The translations under genes and the position numbers were made by a program. From NCBI GenBank assembly GCA_036517295.1, contig DATDWZ010000014.1:1-52235 (forward strand): DNA of 52,235 nucleotides, written 5' to 3'. The first letter of the stretch is position 1, and every line of letters begins with the position of its first letter. The stretch is from Minisyncoccota bacterium. Lineage in GTDB: Bacteria > Patescibacteriota > Minisyncoccia > Phycocordibacterales > DATDWN01. Shown in pieces: positions 25,625-34,772 of the stretch. The notes beneath the pieces are model-generated. The model was not told the origin of the DNA and ran no database searches. It worked only from the letters and a program-made list of their open reading frames with translations.

Positions 25625-25759
25625 TCCGCACACTAACTTAAGTATCGTTACTTGTGCTTTATTATTAAATATCTCAGCTTATAATCTTACGCCTATTGTA
25701 CCACAAGACAATCATATACGTAGTAACCATGAGCGCAATACTTAAGTTAGTGTGCGGAC
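25625..25759. repeat. Perfect 21-bp inverted repeat with 93-nt spacer
   Basis: tccgcacactaacttaagtat (25625-25645) is the exact reverse complement of atacttaagttagtgtgcgga (25739-25759). Confidence 0.9.
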
Positions 25760-25795: not shown

Positions 25796-26845
25796 TTACT
25801 GTTTATTTTTTATATGATATTCCAGTTTTCTACTGCGACAGTGAGATACCATACCAAGATATGAAATTAGAATACCTTGAAATTTGGTTGGGGAGATAAT
25901 TCCCGATTTGAGTTTTTTGCTGATCAGACTTATATTTTTAAGAACTCGCTTTTTTGTATGAGTCCTCAGCACAATCATATGAGGTAGCATGACATATCCT
26001 AGAAAATCGATTCCTTTCTTGACTGAGCGGACTTCTACTTTGTTAGGATGAAGTTCTAATCTAAGATTTTCATAAAGGAACTCCCTTATCCTTTCAATCA
26101 ATCCGGAAAGAGATTCTGAATCCTCGGAAACAATGATGAAATCGTCACAATACCTGAAATAGTATTTTATTTTCAACGTATGTTTTACAAATTGGTCCAA
26201 CTCGTTGAGGTAAATGTTGGCAAAGAGTTGACTTGTCACGTTGCCGAGAGGCAAACCTTTGCCTTTTTCCTTTTCAAAACTTCGGAAAAGTAGGTCTATA
26301 AGTTGCATCGTTTCATGACATGATACTTTTTTCTCTATGAGACTTCGCAATATAAAATGGTCTATTGAATCAAAAAACTTTCTAACATCACATTTCAAGA
26401 CATGTATTTTTCTTTTCCAATTCCTGCTTACTTTTCTACAGGCCACAAAAGACCGTTCCACACCGAGATGTGTTCCGTGTAAATCTCGCGACGAATACGA
26501 GTCATGTATAAAATGTTTATCAAAAATCGGATAAAGTAGGCGATATATCGCCTGATGTACAATACGGTCATAAACGCTTGCTTTGTGTATATGTCTGCGT
26601 TTTGGATCATAAACATAAAAAGCGGAGTATGGCCTATGATGATAATGTCTCGAGGTCAAATCTTCATACAATTGAAAAATATTATCCTCAAGATTCAGTT
26701 CAAATCTAGCCACATCTGCCTTTTTTCTTTTACCCTTCTTAAATTCTTTCCACGCTCCAAATAAATTTGATAGACTTATAATATTATGAAACAAATTCCC
26801 TTGAACGGTGCCCCCCCCCCGCAGCGATGTTGATATTTCCATCAT
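25796..26845 (-). CDS. Diversity-generating retroelement reverse transcriptase
   Basis: RT domains with the DGR-type motif LPLGNVTSQLFANIYL ([ILV]GxxxSQ) and the catalytic YCDD. It sits beside the Avd, TR and VR. Confidence 0.92.
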   Translation of the reverse strand: MMEISTSLRGGGTVQGNLFHNIISLSNLFGAWKEFKKGKRKKADVARFELNLEDNIFQLYEDLTSRHYHHRPYSAFYVYDPKRRHIHKASVYDRIVHQAIYRLLYPIFDKHFIHDSYSSRDLHGTHLGVERSFVACRKVSRNWKRKIHVLKCDVRKFFDSIDHFILRSLIEKKVSCHETMQLIDLLFRSFEKEKGKGLPLGNVTSQLFANIYLNELDQFVKHTLKIKYYFRYCDDFIIVSEDSESLSGLIERIREFLYENLRLELHPNKVEVRSVKKGIDFLGYVMLPHMIVLRTHTKKRVLKNISLISKKLKSGIISPTKFQGILISYLGMVSHCRSRKLEYHIKNKQ

Positions 26846-27182
26846 TCATAGTATTAAACAAGTATACACGATTATTTATCAGACAGGAAAAAAATTACCA
26901 AAAAGCGATAAATTAGGTATTCATGCTTACATTGAAGGCTTGGCTCGGAATATACTAGAGCTGCTTATTTCAGCAAGTTTTAGTTATAAAAACAAAAAAC
27001 CGGAAGTTTTGGAAAAGGCTAGGATACTTCTTGAGGTATTGAAACACTTTGTTAGGGTAGAGTACGAACTCCATATCATCGACGAAAAAGCCTATATAAG
27101 GATTGAGTCCGGTATTATAGAAACCTCAAAAATGACAAATGGTTGGATAAAATATCTTTCTCAACAAAATACCCCGACGTAG
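26808..27182 (+). CDS. avd: Avd-like accessory variability determinant (four-helix-bundle / 23S rRNA IVS protein family)
   Basis: About 124 aa, helical, with the pattern ...VYTIIYQTGKKLPKSDKLGIHAYIEGLARNILELL... typical of the family. The start is uncertain; GTG 26808 is the only canonical in-frame start. Confidence 0.72.
   Translation: MPPPRSDVDISIIHSIKQVYTIIYQTGKKLPKSDKLGIHAYIEGLARNILELLISASFSYKNKKPEVLEKARILLEVLKHFVRVEYELHIIDEKAYIRIESGIIETSKMTNGWIKYLSQQNTPT
26811..26820. repeat. C10/G10 homopolymer tract
   Basis: Ten consecutive C on the plus strand. It lies in RT codons 9-12 (RGGG) and avd ORF codons 2-5 (PPPR). Confidence 0.95.
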
Positions 27183-27204
27183 TCAGAGTATTTGTTAAAA
27201 CTTC

Positions 27205-27319
27205 TGGCGAAGACCGTTCGTCGGGTTCGCATTGTCGACGGTACACGCGTTCACGTAGACCCTCGAGGTGTTCGGGAGCCAGTACACGTAGGGGACGTTG
27301 CCATCTGTGTAGCGAGAAC
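27205..27319 (-). other. DGR template repeat (TR)
   Basis: 115 nt align to 27612-27726 at a constant offset of 407 with 17 mismatches, all at plus-strand T (= minus-strand A) in this copy. Confidence 0.92.
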
Positions 27320-27532
27320 AGTCTTTCTGTGAATTTTCTTCCGTTTCACCGATTCCCTGTTTCCAAGGTCTCTGGGTTATACCCTCAGGTGCGAGGCACT
27401 GTGTTGCATCATCACATCTAGAAAAATCTATGCATAAACACTCACAGGCAGTTTTATTTTTTGGCAAACTATTATGTTTTTTATAAAAAAATAAAAATAC
27501 ACTAGTTTAACAGCCAAATTTAGTATAAGAAA

Positions 27533-27567
27533 TATCCGGCACCAACGCAAAGCGTTAGTGCCGGATA
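27533..27567 (-). promoter_or_regulatory. 16-bp GC-rich hairpin downstream of the VR/target stop (terminator and/or DGR homing-associated stem-loop)
   Basis: tatccggcaccaacgc-aaa-gcgttagtgccggata. The single non-Watson-Crick position is G.U only in the minus-strand transcript. Confidence 0.7.
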
Positions 27568-27601
27568 CAAGGGTAAAAATTAAAAAGGTTAGAGGGAAAA
27601 A

Positions 27602-28354
27602 CTACGCTGCTTGGCGAAGACCGAACGTCGGGTGCGCATCGTCGACGGGACACGCGAACACGCAGACCCACGAGGGGCGCGGGAGCCAGCACACGCAGGG
27701 GACGCGGCCATCTGCGTAGCGAGAACCTGTGCAGAAGGTCATACCCGTGTTGTCCAGATGCTGTCCGGTCTCCACAAAGTACTTGACCTCAAACACCATC
27801 CTCTCGAGGAGTGTCATGCCGATGCTGCCGGCCATGTCGCTATCTCGCGTAGACTTGCCCAAGAACTCGCCATCTGGCTCGACACCGTCACGAACCCAGA
27901 CGGCGTAACTCATAGTCGATGTCCGGGTGTTGACCGTGACGCTCGCGTCCAAATCCTCCGCGTAGACCCAGACCTGGAACTTACTCCGCATAATTGCCAG
28001 AGTTGCATTCATGGAAAGGCCCATGGGAATGAAGATGAGGCGCCACGAGCCAACTTTCGGCCTCTCGCGCACGACAACTTCCGAGAAGTCCGTGACCATT
28101 TTGAAGTGGTCTTGATAGAACTTCTGCCATTCGGCGCGCACTTCGGCATACGGGTCAGCGGTGATCTCAAACACCTTTTCCAGCGCCTTGCGCAGGACGG
28201 TGTTCTTGTTTCCGAGCAGGTGTTTGACCTCCTCGAACGACAATCTCGCCAGAACACCAGCGATGAAGCCGGCAAGCGAGATGATCATCTCCAGAGTCGG
28301 CAGCCGCTTAGGCGCCTTCTTATCGGTCGAGTTCTGTCCTGGCTTTGTGGCCAT
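27602..28354 (-). CDS. DGR target (variable) protein with a C-terminal CLec-like VR domain
   Basis: 250-aa ORF whose last about 38 codons are the VR. The C-terminus ...WLPRPSWVCVFACPVDDAHPTFGLRQAA resembles the ends of CLec/FGE-type DGR targets. An SD (AAGGAAAGAGGG) lies upstream. Confidence 0.85.
   Translation of the reverse strand: MATKPGQNSTDKKAPKRLPTLEMIISLAGFIAGVLARLSFEEVKHLLGNKNTVLRKALEKVFEITADPYAEVRAEWQKFYQDHFKMVTDFSEVVVRERPKVGSWRLIFIPMGLSMNATLAIMRSKFQVWVYAEDLDASVTVNTRTSTMSYAVWVRDGVEPDGEFLGKSTRDSDMAGSIGMTLLERMVFEVKYFVETGQHLDNTGMTFCTGSRYADGRVPCVCWLPRPSWVCVFACPVDDAHPTFGLRQAA
27612..27726 (-). other. DGR variable repeat (VR)
   Basis: Counterpart of the TR. 13 codons differ from the TR reading frame (for example N>R, Y>C, N>F, T>P). 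Confidence 0.92.
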
Positions 28355-28426: not shown

Positions 28427-28455
28427 ACTATATATTAAATATATGGCTGTGTCAA
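28427..28455 (-). promoter_or_regulatory. Near-consensus sigma70-type promoter for the DGR target gene
   Basis: The minus strand reads TTGACA, a 17-nt spacer, then TATAGT. The palindrome ggtgac-accac-gtcacc (28391-28407) lies in the leader. Confidence 0.6.
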
Positions 28456-29989: not shown

Positions 29990-30583
29990 TTACATATCTT
30001 CTATGTTAGCAATTTGTGAACAAATCAAATTTCTCAGTTTCACGTTATTAAAATGGACCAGAACCACGCCATAATTCATCTTATTAGCATATGTTCCATC
30101 TCCCCTTCTCTTAAGTATTGTCGTCTTAGAGAATTGAGCACTTTTTACCGATAAATACTTGGTCCAGAATAAAATAAGTTCATCGACATCAAGATCGTCG
30201 TATGTTTGCAACTGAAATTTTAATTTCCTTTTATCTATTTTGTAAATCTTGGTAAGAAAATATAGAAATCTTTTAATTAAAGCAGGGTCACTGTTACATA
30301 ATCTAACTGCATGGAGATTTCTCTTTGTACCTTCACCCCAAAACAAACCTAACCCTAAGCCGAAAAGAAACATATCACCAAGTTTTTTCGGGGTATTAAA
30401 GGAAAAGGGGTCACCTTTTGGATTGTTCCTTTGATACGTGGCCTCGGATATTGTTCTTTTTTTAATATCAAACTTTTCTAGCCAGTAATTCACTTTATGT
30501 TCTGAACATTTATATATTCGACCAATCTGTTTTGAAGACAACTTCTTACTTAGATATAATTTTTCTAGTTTTGTTTTTTCCAT
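29990..30583 (-). CDS. HTH plus single-motif LAGLIDADG-like endonuclease homolog
   Basis: N-terminal HTH (LSSKQIGRIYKCSEHKVNYWL) and a LFGLGLGLFWGEGTK LAGLIDADG-like motif. The ORF ends 29 nt before tRNA-Thr(GGU). Confidence 0.55.
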   Translation of the reverse strand: MEKTKLEKLYLSKKLSSKQIGRIYKCSEHKVNYWLEKFDIKKRTISEATYQRNNPKGDPFSFNTPKKLGDMFLFGLGLGLFWGEGTKRNLHAVRLCNSDPALIKRFLYFLTKIYKIDKRKLKFQLQTYDDLDVDELILFWTKYLSVKSAQFSKTTILKRRGDGTYANKMNYGVVLVHFNNVKLRNLICSQIANIEDM

Positions 30584-33822: not shown

Positions 33823-34110
33823 CGACCGGACTTGAACCGGCAACCTCTCCCGTGCACTTATTCATTATTTTCATAATGGCGTGGACTATATCTTCACCAT
33901 AGGATTACCCTTAGGTGCTTCGGTATCTAGTCTCTACGGCGCCCCAGCTCTAATTGTGTAATTAGGGCTGGGTTCCCTCGGTATTCGCATATCCTTCGTA
34001 TGAACTCAGGACTTAGCCTTCACCGATATCCCAAAGAGTTTCAATCTGCCGTTTCGACAGAAAGCTGCATATCTACAGGGGAGTGCTCTAACCAGTTGAG
34101 CTACGACCGC
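33817..34110 (-). tRNA. tRNA-Asp(GUC) interrupted by a group I intron
   Basis: The exons 34110-34075 and 33854-33817 join to a 74-nt cloverleaf with anticodon loop CTGTCAC, discriminator G and a short variable loop. Confidence 0.75.
33855..34074 (-). ncRNA. Group I intron (IC3-like, ORF-less), inserted between anticodon positions 35 and 36
   Basis: The core string GTAGAGACTAGA...CACCTAAGG...CTATGG closely matches the tRNA group I intron core as I remember it from Azoarcus and Anabaena. P1 is exon CTGT paired to GCAG with a U.G at the splice site. The intron ends in G. Confidence 0.72.
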
Positions 34111-34772
34111 ATTTCCTTATATCTCTCAAATACATCTTTCTTCCTTTTTAGGAATAACTTTGATGTACCTAGAGTATTATACATAAAATCGTATAATCTC
34201 AAAGAGTTATTGACACTGTACTGCAGACGGGAATAATTTCTTTTCGACTTATATATGCAGCCGCCCAACATGCCGAAACCAGCAAGTTCTATCTGCAATG
34301 TTCTCAAGAATTTATCAGAACCTGATGTAAACATGGTCATAATAGAAAAAATACTGTGTTTCCTGTCTTTTTTCATATCTCCAATCCACACATTCCCATC
34401 ACCATCAAAATAACCTCTGACAAAATTAGAAAAGTATTTTGTAGGAACATGAGAAATGGCCAGACTTTTTGTCTTTCTTTCATTAAAACCCAGCCTGCGC
34501 AGATCGTTACACATTTCAATACTACCTATCTGCATTCTCCACTGGTCCTTGTTTTTCCCCCTCCCTTTTCTAAAACTAATTTTATGTTCAGATTCTATAG
34601 TCTTTTTTATTTCTTCTACTAATCCCTCGTCAGTTATACTAATACACCAAAACTGCCCGCCACGCCTATTTACTGTGATATAACCATCCGCAGCGAAAAA
34701 TCCTAGTACGTAAGCCATATTAGATGACCATTTTTTGAAAAAACCTTTATTTACTGATTTAAATACTGGCAC
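34101..34772 (-). CDS. Double-motif LAGLIDADG homing endonuclease, free-standing
   Basis: Motifs LGFFAADGYI and VRGYFDGDGNV. The stop codon lies inside the first 10 nt of tRNA-Asp. Confidence 0.8.
   Translation of the reverse strand: MPVFKSVNKGFFKKWSSNMAYVLGFFAADGYITVNRRGGQFWCISITDEGLVEEIKKTIESEHKISFRKGRGKNKDQWRMQIGSIEMCNDLRRLGFNERKTKSLAISHVPTKYFSNFVRGYFDGDGNVWIGDMKKDRKHSIFSIMTMFTSGSDKFLRTLQIELAGFGMLGGCIYKSKRNYSRLQYSVNNSLRLYDFMYNTLGTSKLFLKRKKDVFERYKEMRS

Follow-up and report, generated by a model that had tools for sequence, protein, structure and literature searches.

A chromosomal diversity-generating retroelement of the candidate-phyla type and a conserved predicted RNA domain upstream of its template repeat

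Introduction

To our knowledge, all mechanistic knowledge of priming in diversity-generating retroelements (DGRs) comes from the RNA of a Bordetella phage. In this system, a non-coding segment (Sp) downstream of the template repeat (TR) is essential and binds Avd (accessory variability determinant), while a 7-bp duplex forms between Sp and the 3' end of TR, with complementary DNA (cDNA) being primed at residue A56 of Sp (Handa et al. 2018, PMC6182149). As for the DGRs of the candidate phyla radiation (CPR), 90% of them display Architecture B3, "TR-(avd)-RT," where RT is the reverse transcriptase (Wu et al. 2018, Nucleic Acids Res 46:11, PMC5758913). Here, we analyze a 52,235-nt stretch of DNA from a Minisyncoccota bacterium (contig DATDWZ010000014.1), hereafter the window, which almost certainly contains a chromosomal DGR of this CPR type, Architecture B3, located between prfB and ftsEX in a Paceibacteria-like genome.

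The gene order in the window is target gene with its variable repeat (VR), TR, avd on the opposite strand, and RT, and its coordinates reproduce the core order of B3, TR - (avd on reverse strand) - RT. The locus resembles the published CPR elements in order, strands, CPR host group, adenine-specific mutagenesis and the possession of a small uncharacterized target with a C-terminal VR, with no difference at the level of the cassette (PMC5758913). Since this layout is the published one, the inverted avd was already known, and the element is an ordinary CPR form of a well-known system. Its DGR identity and CPR layout are thus known, making it one more example of a standard type, and the window sequence itself was already present in public assemblies. 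The DGR class being known to be abundant in candidate-phyla bacteria, what is added here is evidence of activity in natural populations, together with features at the RNA level.

Comparison with the prototype, the DGR of Bordetella phage BPP-1 (mtd-avd-TR-brt), reveals both likenesses and differences. The two have homologous RTs (E 1e-46 to the 8ub7 chain) with the same SQ and YxDD motifs, an Avd, and a VR placed 3' within the target, with a hairpin after its GC-rich end. However, avd lies here on the opposite strand and overlaps the start of RT, structured non-coding RNA is found 5' of TR rather than 3' of it (Sp), and only ~40 nt follow TR before the sequence ends in a terminator-like hairpin. 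Moreover, the element resides on a cellular chromosome rather than in a phage, and its target has no detectable similarity to Mtd.

Adenine-specific divergence between the two repeats

A repeat search of the window found one 115-nt direct repeat (27205-27319 and 27612-27726), with an offset of 407 and 85% identity. The repeat is present as two copies only, and neither a third copy nor a second VR was found anywhere in the window. The features concerned are as follows.

27602-28354, minus strand: target gene, 250 amino acids (aa); its basic N-terminus leads into one hydrophobic helix, and its conserved C-terminal domain (~160 aa) closes with the 38 residues that correspond to the VR
27612-27726, minus strand: VR, with observed A-to-N changes across 27624-27715
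27612-27623, minus strand: GC-rich 12-nt segment at the VR 3' end, resembling the initiation of mutagenic homing (IMH) element (CGGTCTTCGCCA), identical in TR and VR
27532-27568, minus strand: hairpin of 17 bp (DNA fold -17.8 kcal/mol, z-score -4.2) that runs into a T-rich tail and lies 43 nt beyond the VR; matched in a scan for terminator-like sequences
27205-27319, minus strand: TR, with 25 adenines, rich in AAC/TAC/ACC and invariant between samples

When TR and VR are compared base by base, 17 of the 115 positions are mismatched, each at a plus-strand T of TR (i.e., an A on the minus, coding strand), replaced on the plus strand of VR by C (7), A (5) or G (5). Eight other TR adenines are unchanged, and there are no differences at any non-adenine base. 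The probability of all 17 mismatches landing on the 25 adenine positions is 1.2e-14 (hypergeometric). These changes hit 13 codons (AAC five times, TAC three times, ACC twice, and ACA, AAT and AGG) among the last 38 of the 250-aa open reading frame (ORF), which ends in ...GLRQAA, the adenines occupying codon positions 1 and 2. A preliminary description of this DNA had reported the same alignment, with the same counts of changed and unchanged adenines and of codons in the target tail, all of which we reproduced; a non-adenine mismatch, which it had named as counterevidence, did not appear on re-alignment. Its claim that homology ends abruptly on both sides needs correction on the 3' side, where, with a 1-nt insertion in the VR, the homology runs four bases further (GAAG in TR, GCAG in VR), as in all relatives.

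The end of the VR has the organization expected of an IMH, with a GC-rich segment of 12 nt identical in both repeats, then divergence, then the 17-bp hairpin. Judging from this organization, the 12-nt segment behaves like the GC-rich part of IMH. A counterpart of the hairpin is present in 13/13 related loci examined, and this element could be either a terminator of the target gene or a DGR cruciform element, or both. As an aside, TR sits within a 90-aa pseudo-ORF resembling the target tail.

In the mechanism proposed for this locus, TR would be transcribed on the minus strand within a non-coding RNA, and RT and Avd would copy it into cDNA, misincorporating nucleotides opposite template adenines. 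This cDNA would then replace the VR, which could rewrite up to 25 nucleotide positions (13 codons now differ) in the stretch encoding the last 38 residues of the 250-aa protein, while TR would stay constant.

Recent activity in natural populations

In the 90% protein cluster of the target, public assemblies contain five 250-aa variants, which are identical over residues 1-212 and differ in the tail only. At the nucleotide level, a first related locus from an independent metagenome assembly (L001, JGI 3300025317; related loci are designated by L numbers) shows 10 substitutions relative to the window over 2806 aligned nt, each of them at an adenine-templated VR position (P = 4e-22). Two others, L002 and L003, add three more adenine-templated VR sites, giving 13 such differences between samples in all, while TR is identical in L001-L003 and in L122-L126. 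Five further assemblies are 100% identical to the window. Four VR alleles occur on near-identical backgrounds (99.6-100% identity). As judged from these comparisons, the element is recently active in nature. The variation test suggested in the preliminary description, run here on consensus assemblies, thus came out positive: VR variation between assemblies of the same strain is limited to adenine-templated sites, with identical flanks and an unchanged TR.

Several peculiarities were seen in the same set of assemblies. In L004 (ERZ28563641 scaffold_51694, 1098-1850, protein P0001), the tail of the target is the TR sequence (ending in ...RQKF) and is joined directly to avd, the 407 nt between VR and TR being absent. 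This VR/TR hybrid is most likely the result of an assembler collapsing the two repeats, although it may instead be a genuine deletion by recombination between VR and TR. Another contig, L124, likewise ends within the VR-TR spacer, at window position 27508. Differences at non-adenine sites between near-identical assemblies are few, and four of them (27620, 27607, 27599 and 27585; read on the minus strand, T->G in three cases and G->T in the other) lie within 36 nt at or beyond the VR 3' end (27585-27620). This cluster may reflect sloppy repair at the junction of cDNA integration, or assembly error.

Reverse transcriptase and Avd

Two protein-coding genes complete the cassette, and their 5' ends overlap by 38 nt.

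25796-26845, minus strand: reverse transcriptase of the DGR (349 aa); contains YCDD and an SQ-type motif 4, LPLGNVTSQ
26808-27182, plus strand: avd, 124 aa, GTG start, opposite to RT, TR and target gene
26811-26820, no strand assigned: C10/G10 homopolymer within the 38-nt RT/avd overlap, encoding Gly-Gly-Gly in RT and Pro-Pro-Pro in Avd

The RT matches Pfam RVT_1 with 85 bits. Its best match in the Protein Data Bank (PDB) is 8ub7, labeled "Reverse transcriptase" (E 1.2e-46, 162.7 bits, residues 16-306), which we take to be the Bordetella bRT (i.e., the phage DGR RT). In the same search, no group II intron or retron-type RT scores above 64 bits. These RTs, which have the RVT_1 palm/finger core in common with the window RT, are its nearest relatives outside DGRs, but their similarity to it is far below that of bRT. 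Furthermore, the window RT has no maturase or endonuclease extension, in contrast to group II RTs, and neither group II intron RNA nor retron (msr/msd) or DRT RNA was found in the cassette at Rfam gathering score. In NCBIfam, the best model is that of the group II RT/maturase TIGR04416 (147.9 bits, cut-off 300); all group II, retron and Drt/DRT models remain below their cut-offs, and no DGR RT model was returned. On these grounds, that is, by motifs and search scores, the RT is a member of the DGR clade. This agrees with the preliminary description, whose two DGR-type motifs are both present in the minus-strand ORF, and disposes of the grouping with group II or retron RTs that it had set as a refutation.

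Avd matches NCBIfam DivGenRetAVD (E 1.5e-12, 47.7 bits, profile positions 2-104 of 104) and Pfam bAvd (E 6.7e-8, 33.4 bits), both matches spanning the whole profile, with PF22296 also recorded for this protein. The Avd-like ORF of the preliminary description is therefore an Avd homologue by profile comparison, and we refine its placement to the plus strand, opposite RT, TR and target gene, a position and strand that are kept in relatives. All the defining parts of a DGR are hence present (a DGR-clade RT, an Avd, adenine-only TR/VR divergence, a VR at the 3' end of an ORF, and a hairpin after the VR), which supports the parts list of RT, Avd-like ORF, TR and VR, and the DGR reading, that had been proposed.

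The homopolymer in the RT/avd overlap is a recurrent feature. A run of G8-11 occupies the same site in 13/13 related cassettes, and a G run of at least 7 is found in 38/58 RT-related metagenome loci, the RT genes having a GC content of only 25-43%. Dual coding of Gly3 and Pro3 is possible without a homopolymer, since GGAGGAGGA also suffices. Depending on lineage, the length of the tract sets a different frame relative to a conserved N-terminal peptide of RT (MN[DN]x[ND]I..GGG): the conserved start is in frame in L009, L018, L027, L029, L038 and L039, whereas in the window, L006 and L025 it is not, and an alternative ATG that overlaps it takes its place. In L005 and L013, both RT and avd lack an upstream start that is in frame. 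From these comparisons, the frame differences look like the product of slippage, either evolutionary or phase-variable, but may alternatively be assembly errors at homopolymers. The tract is G10 in all eight near-identical assemblies that cover it, which thus give no consensus-level evidence of phase variation. An in-silico scan of slippage by +/-2 was uninformative, start codons being present in several frames.

A conserved RNA domain 5' of TR

The interval of ~290 nt between VR and TR is more than a spacer and contains, in order, the VR hairpin, a TATAC(T) box, a stem-loop (P1), an invariant AAACUGC, and a multi-branched domain ending ~10 nt before TR.

27522-27527, minus strand: TATACT, a -10-like box directly after the T-run of the hairpin; TATAC is kept in 10/14 aligned loci (alignment A3)
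27462-27516, minus strand: P1 stem-loop (TGGC..AAACTA / TAGTTT..GCCA), predicted 5' end of the TR RNA; RNAalifold helices 1-2, with 10 pairs, 5 of them with compensatory changes
27318-27459, minus strand: multi-branched RNA domain (covariance model R1), with a closing stem P2 (27436-27447 / 27327-27338) and three internal hairpins

The box is a putative promoter for the TR RNA, as suggested by its sequence and position. As for the RNA domain, RNAalifold on 14 loci predicts 34 pairs, 25 of which show compensatory double changes. In this domain, 95.1% of the alignment cells are paired versus 73% in shuffled alignments, with a covariation score of 0.72 versus 0.27, and none of 500 shuffles scores as high. 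When the partners are slid by 1-3 columns, pairing falls to 34-50%. The predicted RNA structure itself is thus firmly supported by the pattern of covariation.

We built covariance model R1 on the 142-nt core of the domain, which is part of a conserved region of ~200 nt directly 5' of TR. R1 has a single match in the window (27459-27318, minus strand, 132.7 bits), and it matches 16/16 cassette-bearing relatives, three of them outside the set used for building the model, while none of the target homologues without a cassette was matched. Among metagenome loci found through their RT (45-58% identity), R1 matches 29 of 80, or 25 of the 57 with at least 700 nt upstream of RT. These matches are all on the RT strand and, apart from four, lie 425-580 nt upstream of RT; they include loci without a detected homologue of this target family. 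In the four others (L070, L079, L102 and L120), R1 lies ~170-200 nt upstream of RT with no avd detectable between them, which looks like a TR-RT arrangement without intervening avd that has the same RNA domain. In the independent metagenome set, 27/29 pairs have compensatory changes, in an alignment that was fitted to the model. R1 therefore provides a ready TR detector for this clade.

The region flanking TR matches no Rfam 15 family, and at E <= 10 it gave noise only (e.g., RT-16 with 20 bits against a 50-bit threshold). Within the two papers covered (Wu 2018, PMC5758913, and Handa 2018, PMC6182149), the TR-flanking RNA domain, the helix P0 presented below and the G tract are not described; in the case of PMC5758913, this conclusion is drawn because "secondary structure," "spacer," "noncoding" and "homopolymer" are absent from its text.

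Helix P0 and a model of the template RNA

The invariant motif upstream of TR can pair with the sequence that immediately follows TR, forming a helix that we call P0.

27448-27456, minus strand: 5' strand of P0 (UAAAACUGC; family consensus NRAAACUGC); AAACTGC is invariant in alignments A3 and A6
27196-27204, minus strand: 3' strand of P0 (GAAGUUUUA), immediately 3' of TR and IMH*-like; its first A is opposite a conserved G (G.A mismatch)
27165-27192, minus strand: hairpin and T-run overlapping the avd stop codon (RNA fold -12.8 kcal/mol), ~10-15 nt beyond the P0 strand

In 31 loci, the eight proposed pairs of P0 are 95.2% paired, versus 31-52% when slid. Covariation is seen at 3/8 pairs, for example G-C in 22 loci versus A-U in 7 at a position outside the constraint of the motif search. 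We relied on this directed comparison instead of an open search for the best partner of the 5' motif, which was dropped since it is confounded by G-U pairs with terminator T-runs. The hairpin and T-run beyond P0 are found at the same place in relatives, being folded in 10/14 loci and seen by eye in L027, L029 and L041. These 3'-of-TR hairpins come from per-sequence folds, because MAFFT misaligned the variable-length hairpins and RNAalifold consequently gave no pairs there. This hairpin is a putative bidirectional terminator, serving both the TR RNA and the convergent avd.

An important implication of this layout is that TR is followed by only ~40 nt and a terminator-like hairpin, and the TR RNA therefore appears to be transcribed apart from RT. 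The TR RNA is predicted to be a discrete transcript of ~350 nt, made apart from the RT mRNA, extending from the TATACT box to the hairpin and T-run, and composed of the 5' domain, TR, the 3' strand of P0 and the terminator. In such a transcript, the conserved 5' domain would be a scaffold for the binding of RT and Avd, while P0 would set the start site of the cDNA, corresponding to the TR-Sp duplex of Bordetella. The analogy rests on a short duplex between the 3' end of TR and a non-coding segment in both systems, 7 bp for TR-Sp (PMC6182149) and 8 bp for P0, with the same geometry (the 3' end of the non-TR strand points toward TR). However, the partner strand is upstream here. Since GAAG varies at its adenines from one VR to another (GCAG, GTAG, GTGG and GCGG), initiation would lie 3' of GAAG, and our hypothesis is that the cDNA is initiated within the GUUUY/RAAAC part of P0.

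Taken together, these features lead to a model in which the template RNA of this large clade of CPR DGRs may be an autonomous, permuted version of the Bordetella RNA, ~350 nt long and non-coding. In this model, the protein-binding domain may lie 5' of TR, and NRAAACUGC may fold forward onto the 3' end of TR to form P0, including its G.A mismatch, which would define or prime the cDNA start. The G8-11 tract may couple the expression of RT and avd, or switch it by slippage. We put this joint model forward tentatively, considering it somewhat doubtful that all its parts will hold at once. It nevertheless turns the upstream RNA domain and P0 into a concrete, testable template model for the commonest CPR architecture, with its inverted avd and no room for a downstream spacer.

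The structured region might instead be an independent regulatory RNA (a leader, a riboswitch or a small RNA) linked to the cassette by chance, with P0 being a by-product of the coding constraint on the VR tail (..AVS). Consistent with this, GAAGTTT at the TR end matches conserved C-terminal residues of the target family and hence has a second reason to be conserved, and the putative role of the domain in retrohoming is read from sequence comparison. However, in every one of the cassette-bearing loci, the domain has a single location, immediately 5' of TR at a constant distance and on the same strand as RT, and target homologues without a cassette do not have it. It is moreover present at loci where no target-family homologue was detected and at the four loci without avd, while P0 covaries at flanking positions outside the motif-search constraint (GC 22 / AU 7; AU 14 / UA 6 / GU 4). 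This alternative is therefore improbable, and we retain the reading of domain and P0 as parts of the template RNA.

Target protein and genomic context

The target has no Pfam or NCBIfam family. We collected ~180 homologues of 240-275 aa, all annotated as "hypothetical," for which the named organisms are Paceibacterota or other CPR metagenome-assembled genomes. In the alignment of these proteins (A1), the body is conserved, while the tail of ~38 residues is hypervariable, with a constant framework that reads GSR..DG.VP.V....V.V....G[LIV]R.AVS. The gene is preceded by a candidate promoter.

28427-28455, minus strand: sigma-70-like promoter of the target gene (TTGACA, 17-nt spacer, TATAGT; 11/12 consensus matches), from a consensus scan, with a putative function

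The best 19-residue Kyte-Doolittle window of the target scores 1.87 (residues 18-36). Because it is basic and followed by a hydrophobic helix, the N-terminus suggests a membrane anchor, which would place the variable domain outside the cell. The target would accordingly be a membrane-anchored, surface-exposed binding protein.

Structural modeling did not confirm the C-type lectin fold that the preliminary description had anticipated for the C-terminus. AlphaFold2 produced two confident models, with a pLDDT (predicted local distance difference test) of 85 for the full-length target and 81 for the C-terminal 159 residues. Neither has a significant Foldseek match (E <= 0.001), whether the full-length model is compared with PDB and BFVD or the C-terminal domain with PDB. 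A profile search of the target against PDB sequences also gave no match. Human C-type lectins, Mtd and EgtB, a protein with an FGE-like domain, are among the weak top matches of the full-length model, with E 0.4-6, probability <0.1 and a template modeling (TM) score <=0.35, and these were gone when the isolated C-terminal domain was used.

The complete cassette, with target gene (+), TR (+), avd (-) and RT (+), and with overlapping 5' ends of avd and RT, was found in at least 12 of 37 related loci, these 12 being among the sixteen CPR loci that carry the RNA domain, and adenine-biased TR/VR pairs are present in all related cassettes examined. The synteny prfB - target - ftsE - ftsX accompanies the cassette in L009 and a decayed version of it in L026, which keeps TR, the RNA domain and a truncated RT, and is also seen in L007, L010 and L017, where the cassette is absent. 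Since this synteny exists with or without TR, avd and RT, the target is a resident chromosomal gene, and the cassette has been gained and lost. Judging from gene order, the element is therefore chromosomal and host-domesticated, with a cassette that comes and goes. Our analysis thus adds one target family, the ~180 small proteins above, often encoded between prfB and ftsEX, with or without a cassette.

Alternative explanations

Several points weigh against the reading of the locus as a working DGR with the template RNA modeled above. Diversification is read from consensus assemblies, not from read pile-ups. Both Avd scores are under the curated cut-offs (47.7 versus 80 bits and 33.4 versus 40 bits). 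The conserved start of the window RT (MN[DN]..I frame) is off by one G, and translation must therefore use the overlapping alternative ATG, which means that full RT expression is not certain. Transcript ends, priming site and RNA-domain function are all predictions. Finally, the target fold has no significant sequence or structure match in the PDB and BFVD searches.

Some of these points would fit a dead DGR remnant, in which the TR/VR differences reflect past activity only and RT or Avd no longer works. The shift of one G in the G10, which separates the frames of the conserved RT start and the RT body, is compatible with such a remnant, as are the exactly identical VR in eight assemblies and the existence of decayed cassettes in relatives (the truncated RT of L026). 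However, the four VR alleles occur on 99.6-100% identical backgrounds, with their differences at adenine-templated sites and an invariant TR. In addition, both RT and avd have intact ORFs, and RT has an ATG in frame and keeps its catalytic YCDD. We therefore consider a dead remnant quite improbable, and retain the reading of the locus as a recently active DGR.

An ordinary partial gene duplication, leaving a pseudogene copy of the target 3' end beside an unrelated group II intron or retron RT, could draw on the pseudo-ORF similar to the target tail around TR and on the group II RT/maturase being the best NCBIfam model (147.9 bits, yet far under the 300-bit cut-off, in a library that returned no DGR RT model), but it is refuted, and has next to no probability, in view of the TR/VR comparison (adenine-only divergence, P = 1e-14, recurring in the TR/VR pairs of every related locus examined), the RT scores (163 bits to 8ub7 versus <=64 bits to group II/retron-type RTs), the VR differences between assemblies, the absence of group II intron or retron RNA by Rfam, and the presence of Avd.

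Other features of the window

A perfect 21-nt inverted repeat (25625-25645 / 25738-25758) surrounds 92 nt between the RT stop and the ftsE start, and occurs only once in the window. It could be a long terminator/attenuator hairpin or the footprint of a small mobile element. Further away, a 197-aa ORF (29990-30583, minus strand), flanked by tRNA-Thr and a peroxiredoxin gene, gave no Pfam match in our scan, and its neighbor, a cut gene call at the edge of L001/L002, shows a weak LAGLIDADG_3 match. A group I catalytic intron is found at 33862-34162 (minus strand; Rfam 56.5 bits, gathering score 50), directly preceded by a LAGLIDADG homing-endonuclease ORF (34101-34772, minus strand) and adjoined by two tRNA-Met genes.

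The base composition of the locus is also uneven, with a GC content of 58% for the target gene, 41% for the genome and 34-36% for RT and avd. The ranking of target above background above RT is found in 11/12 related cassettes checked, the exception being L038, in which RT is slightly above the background.

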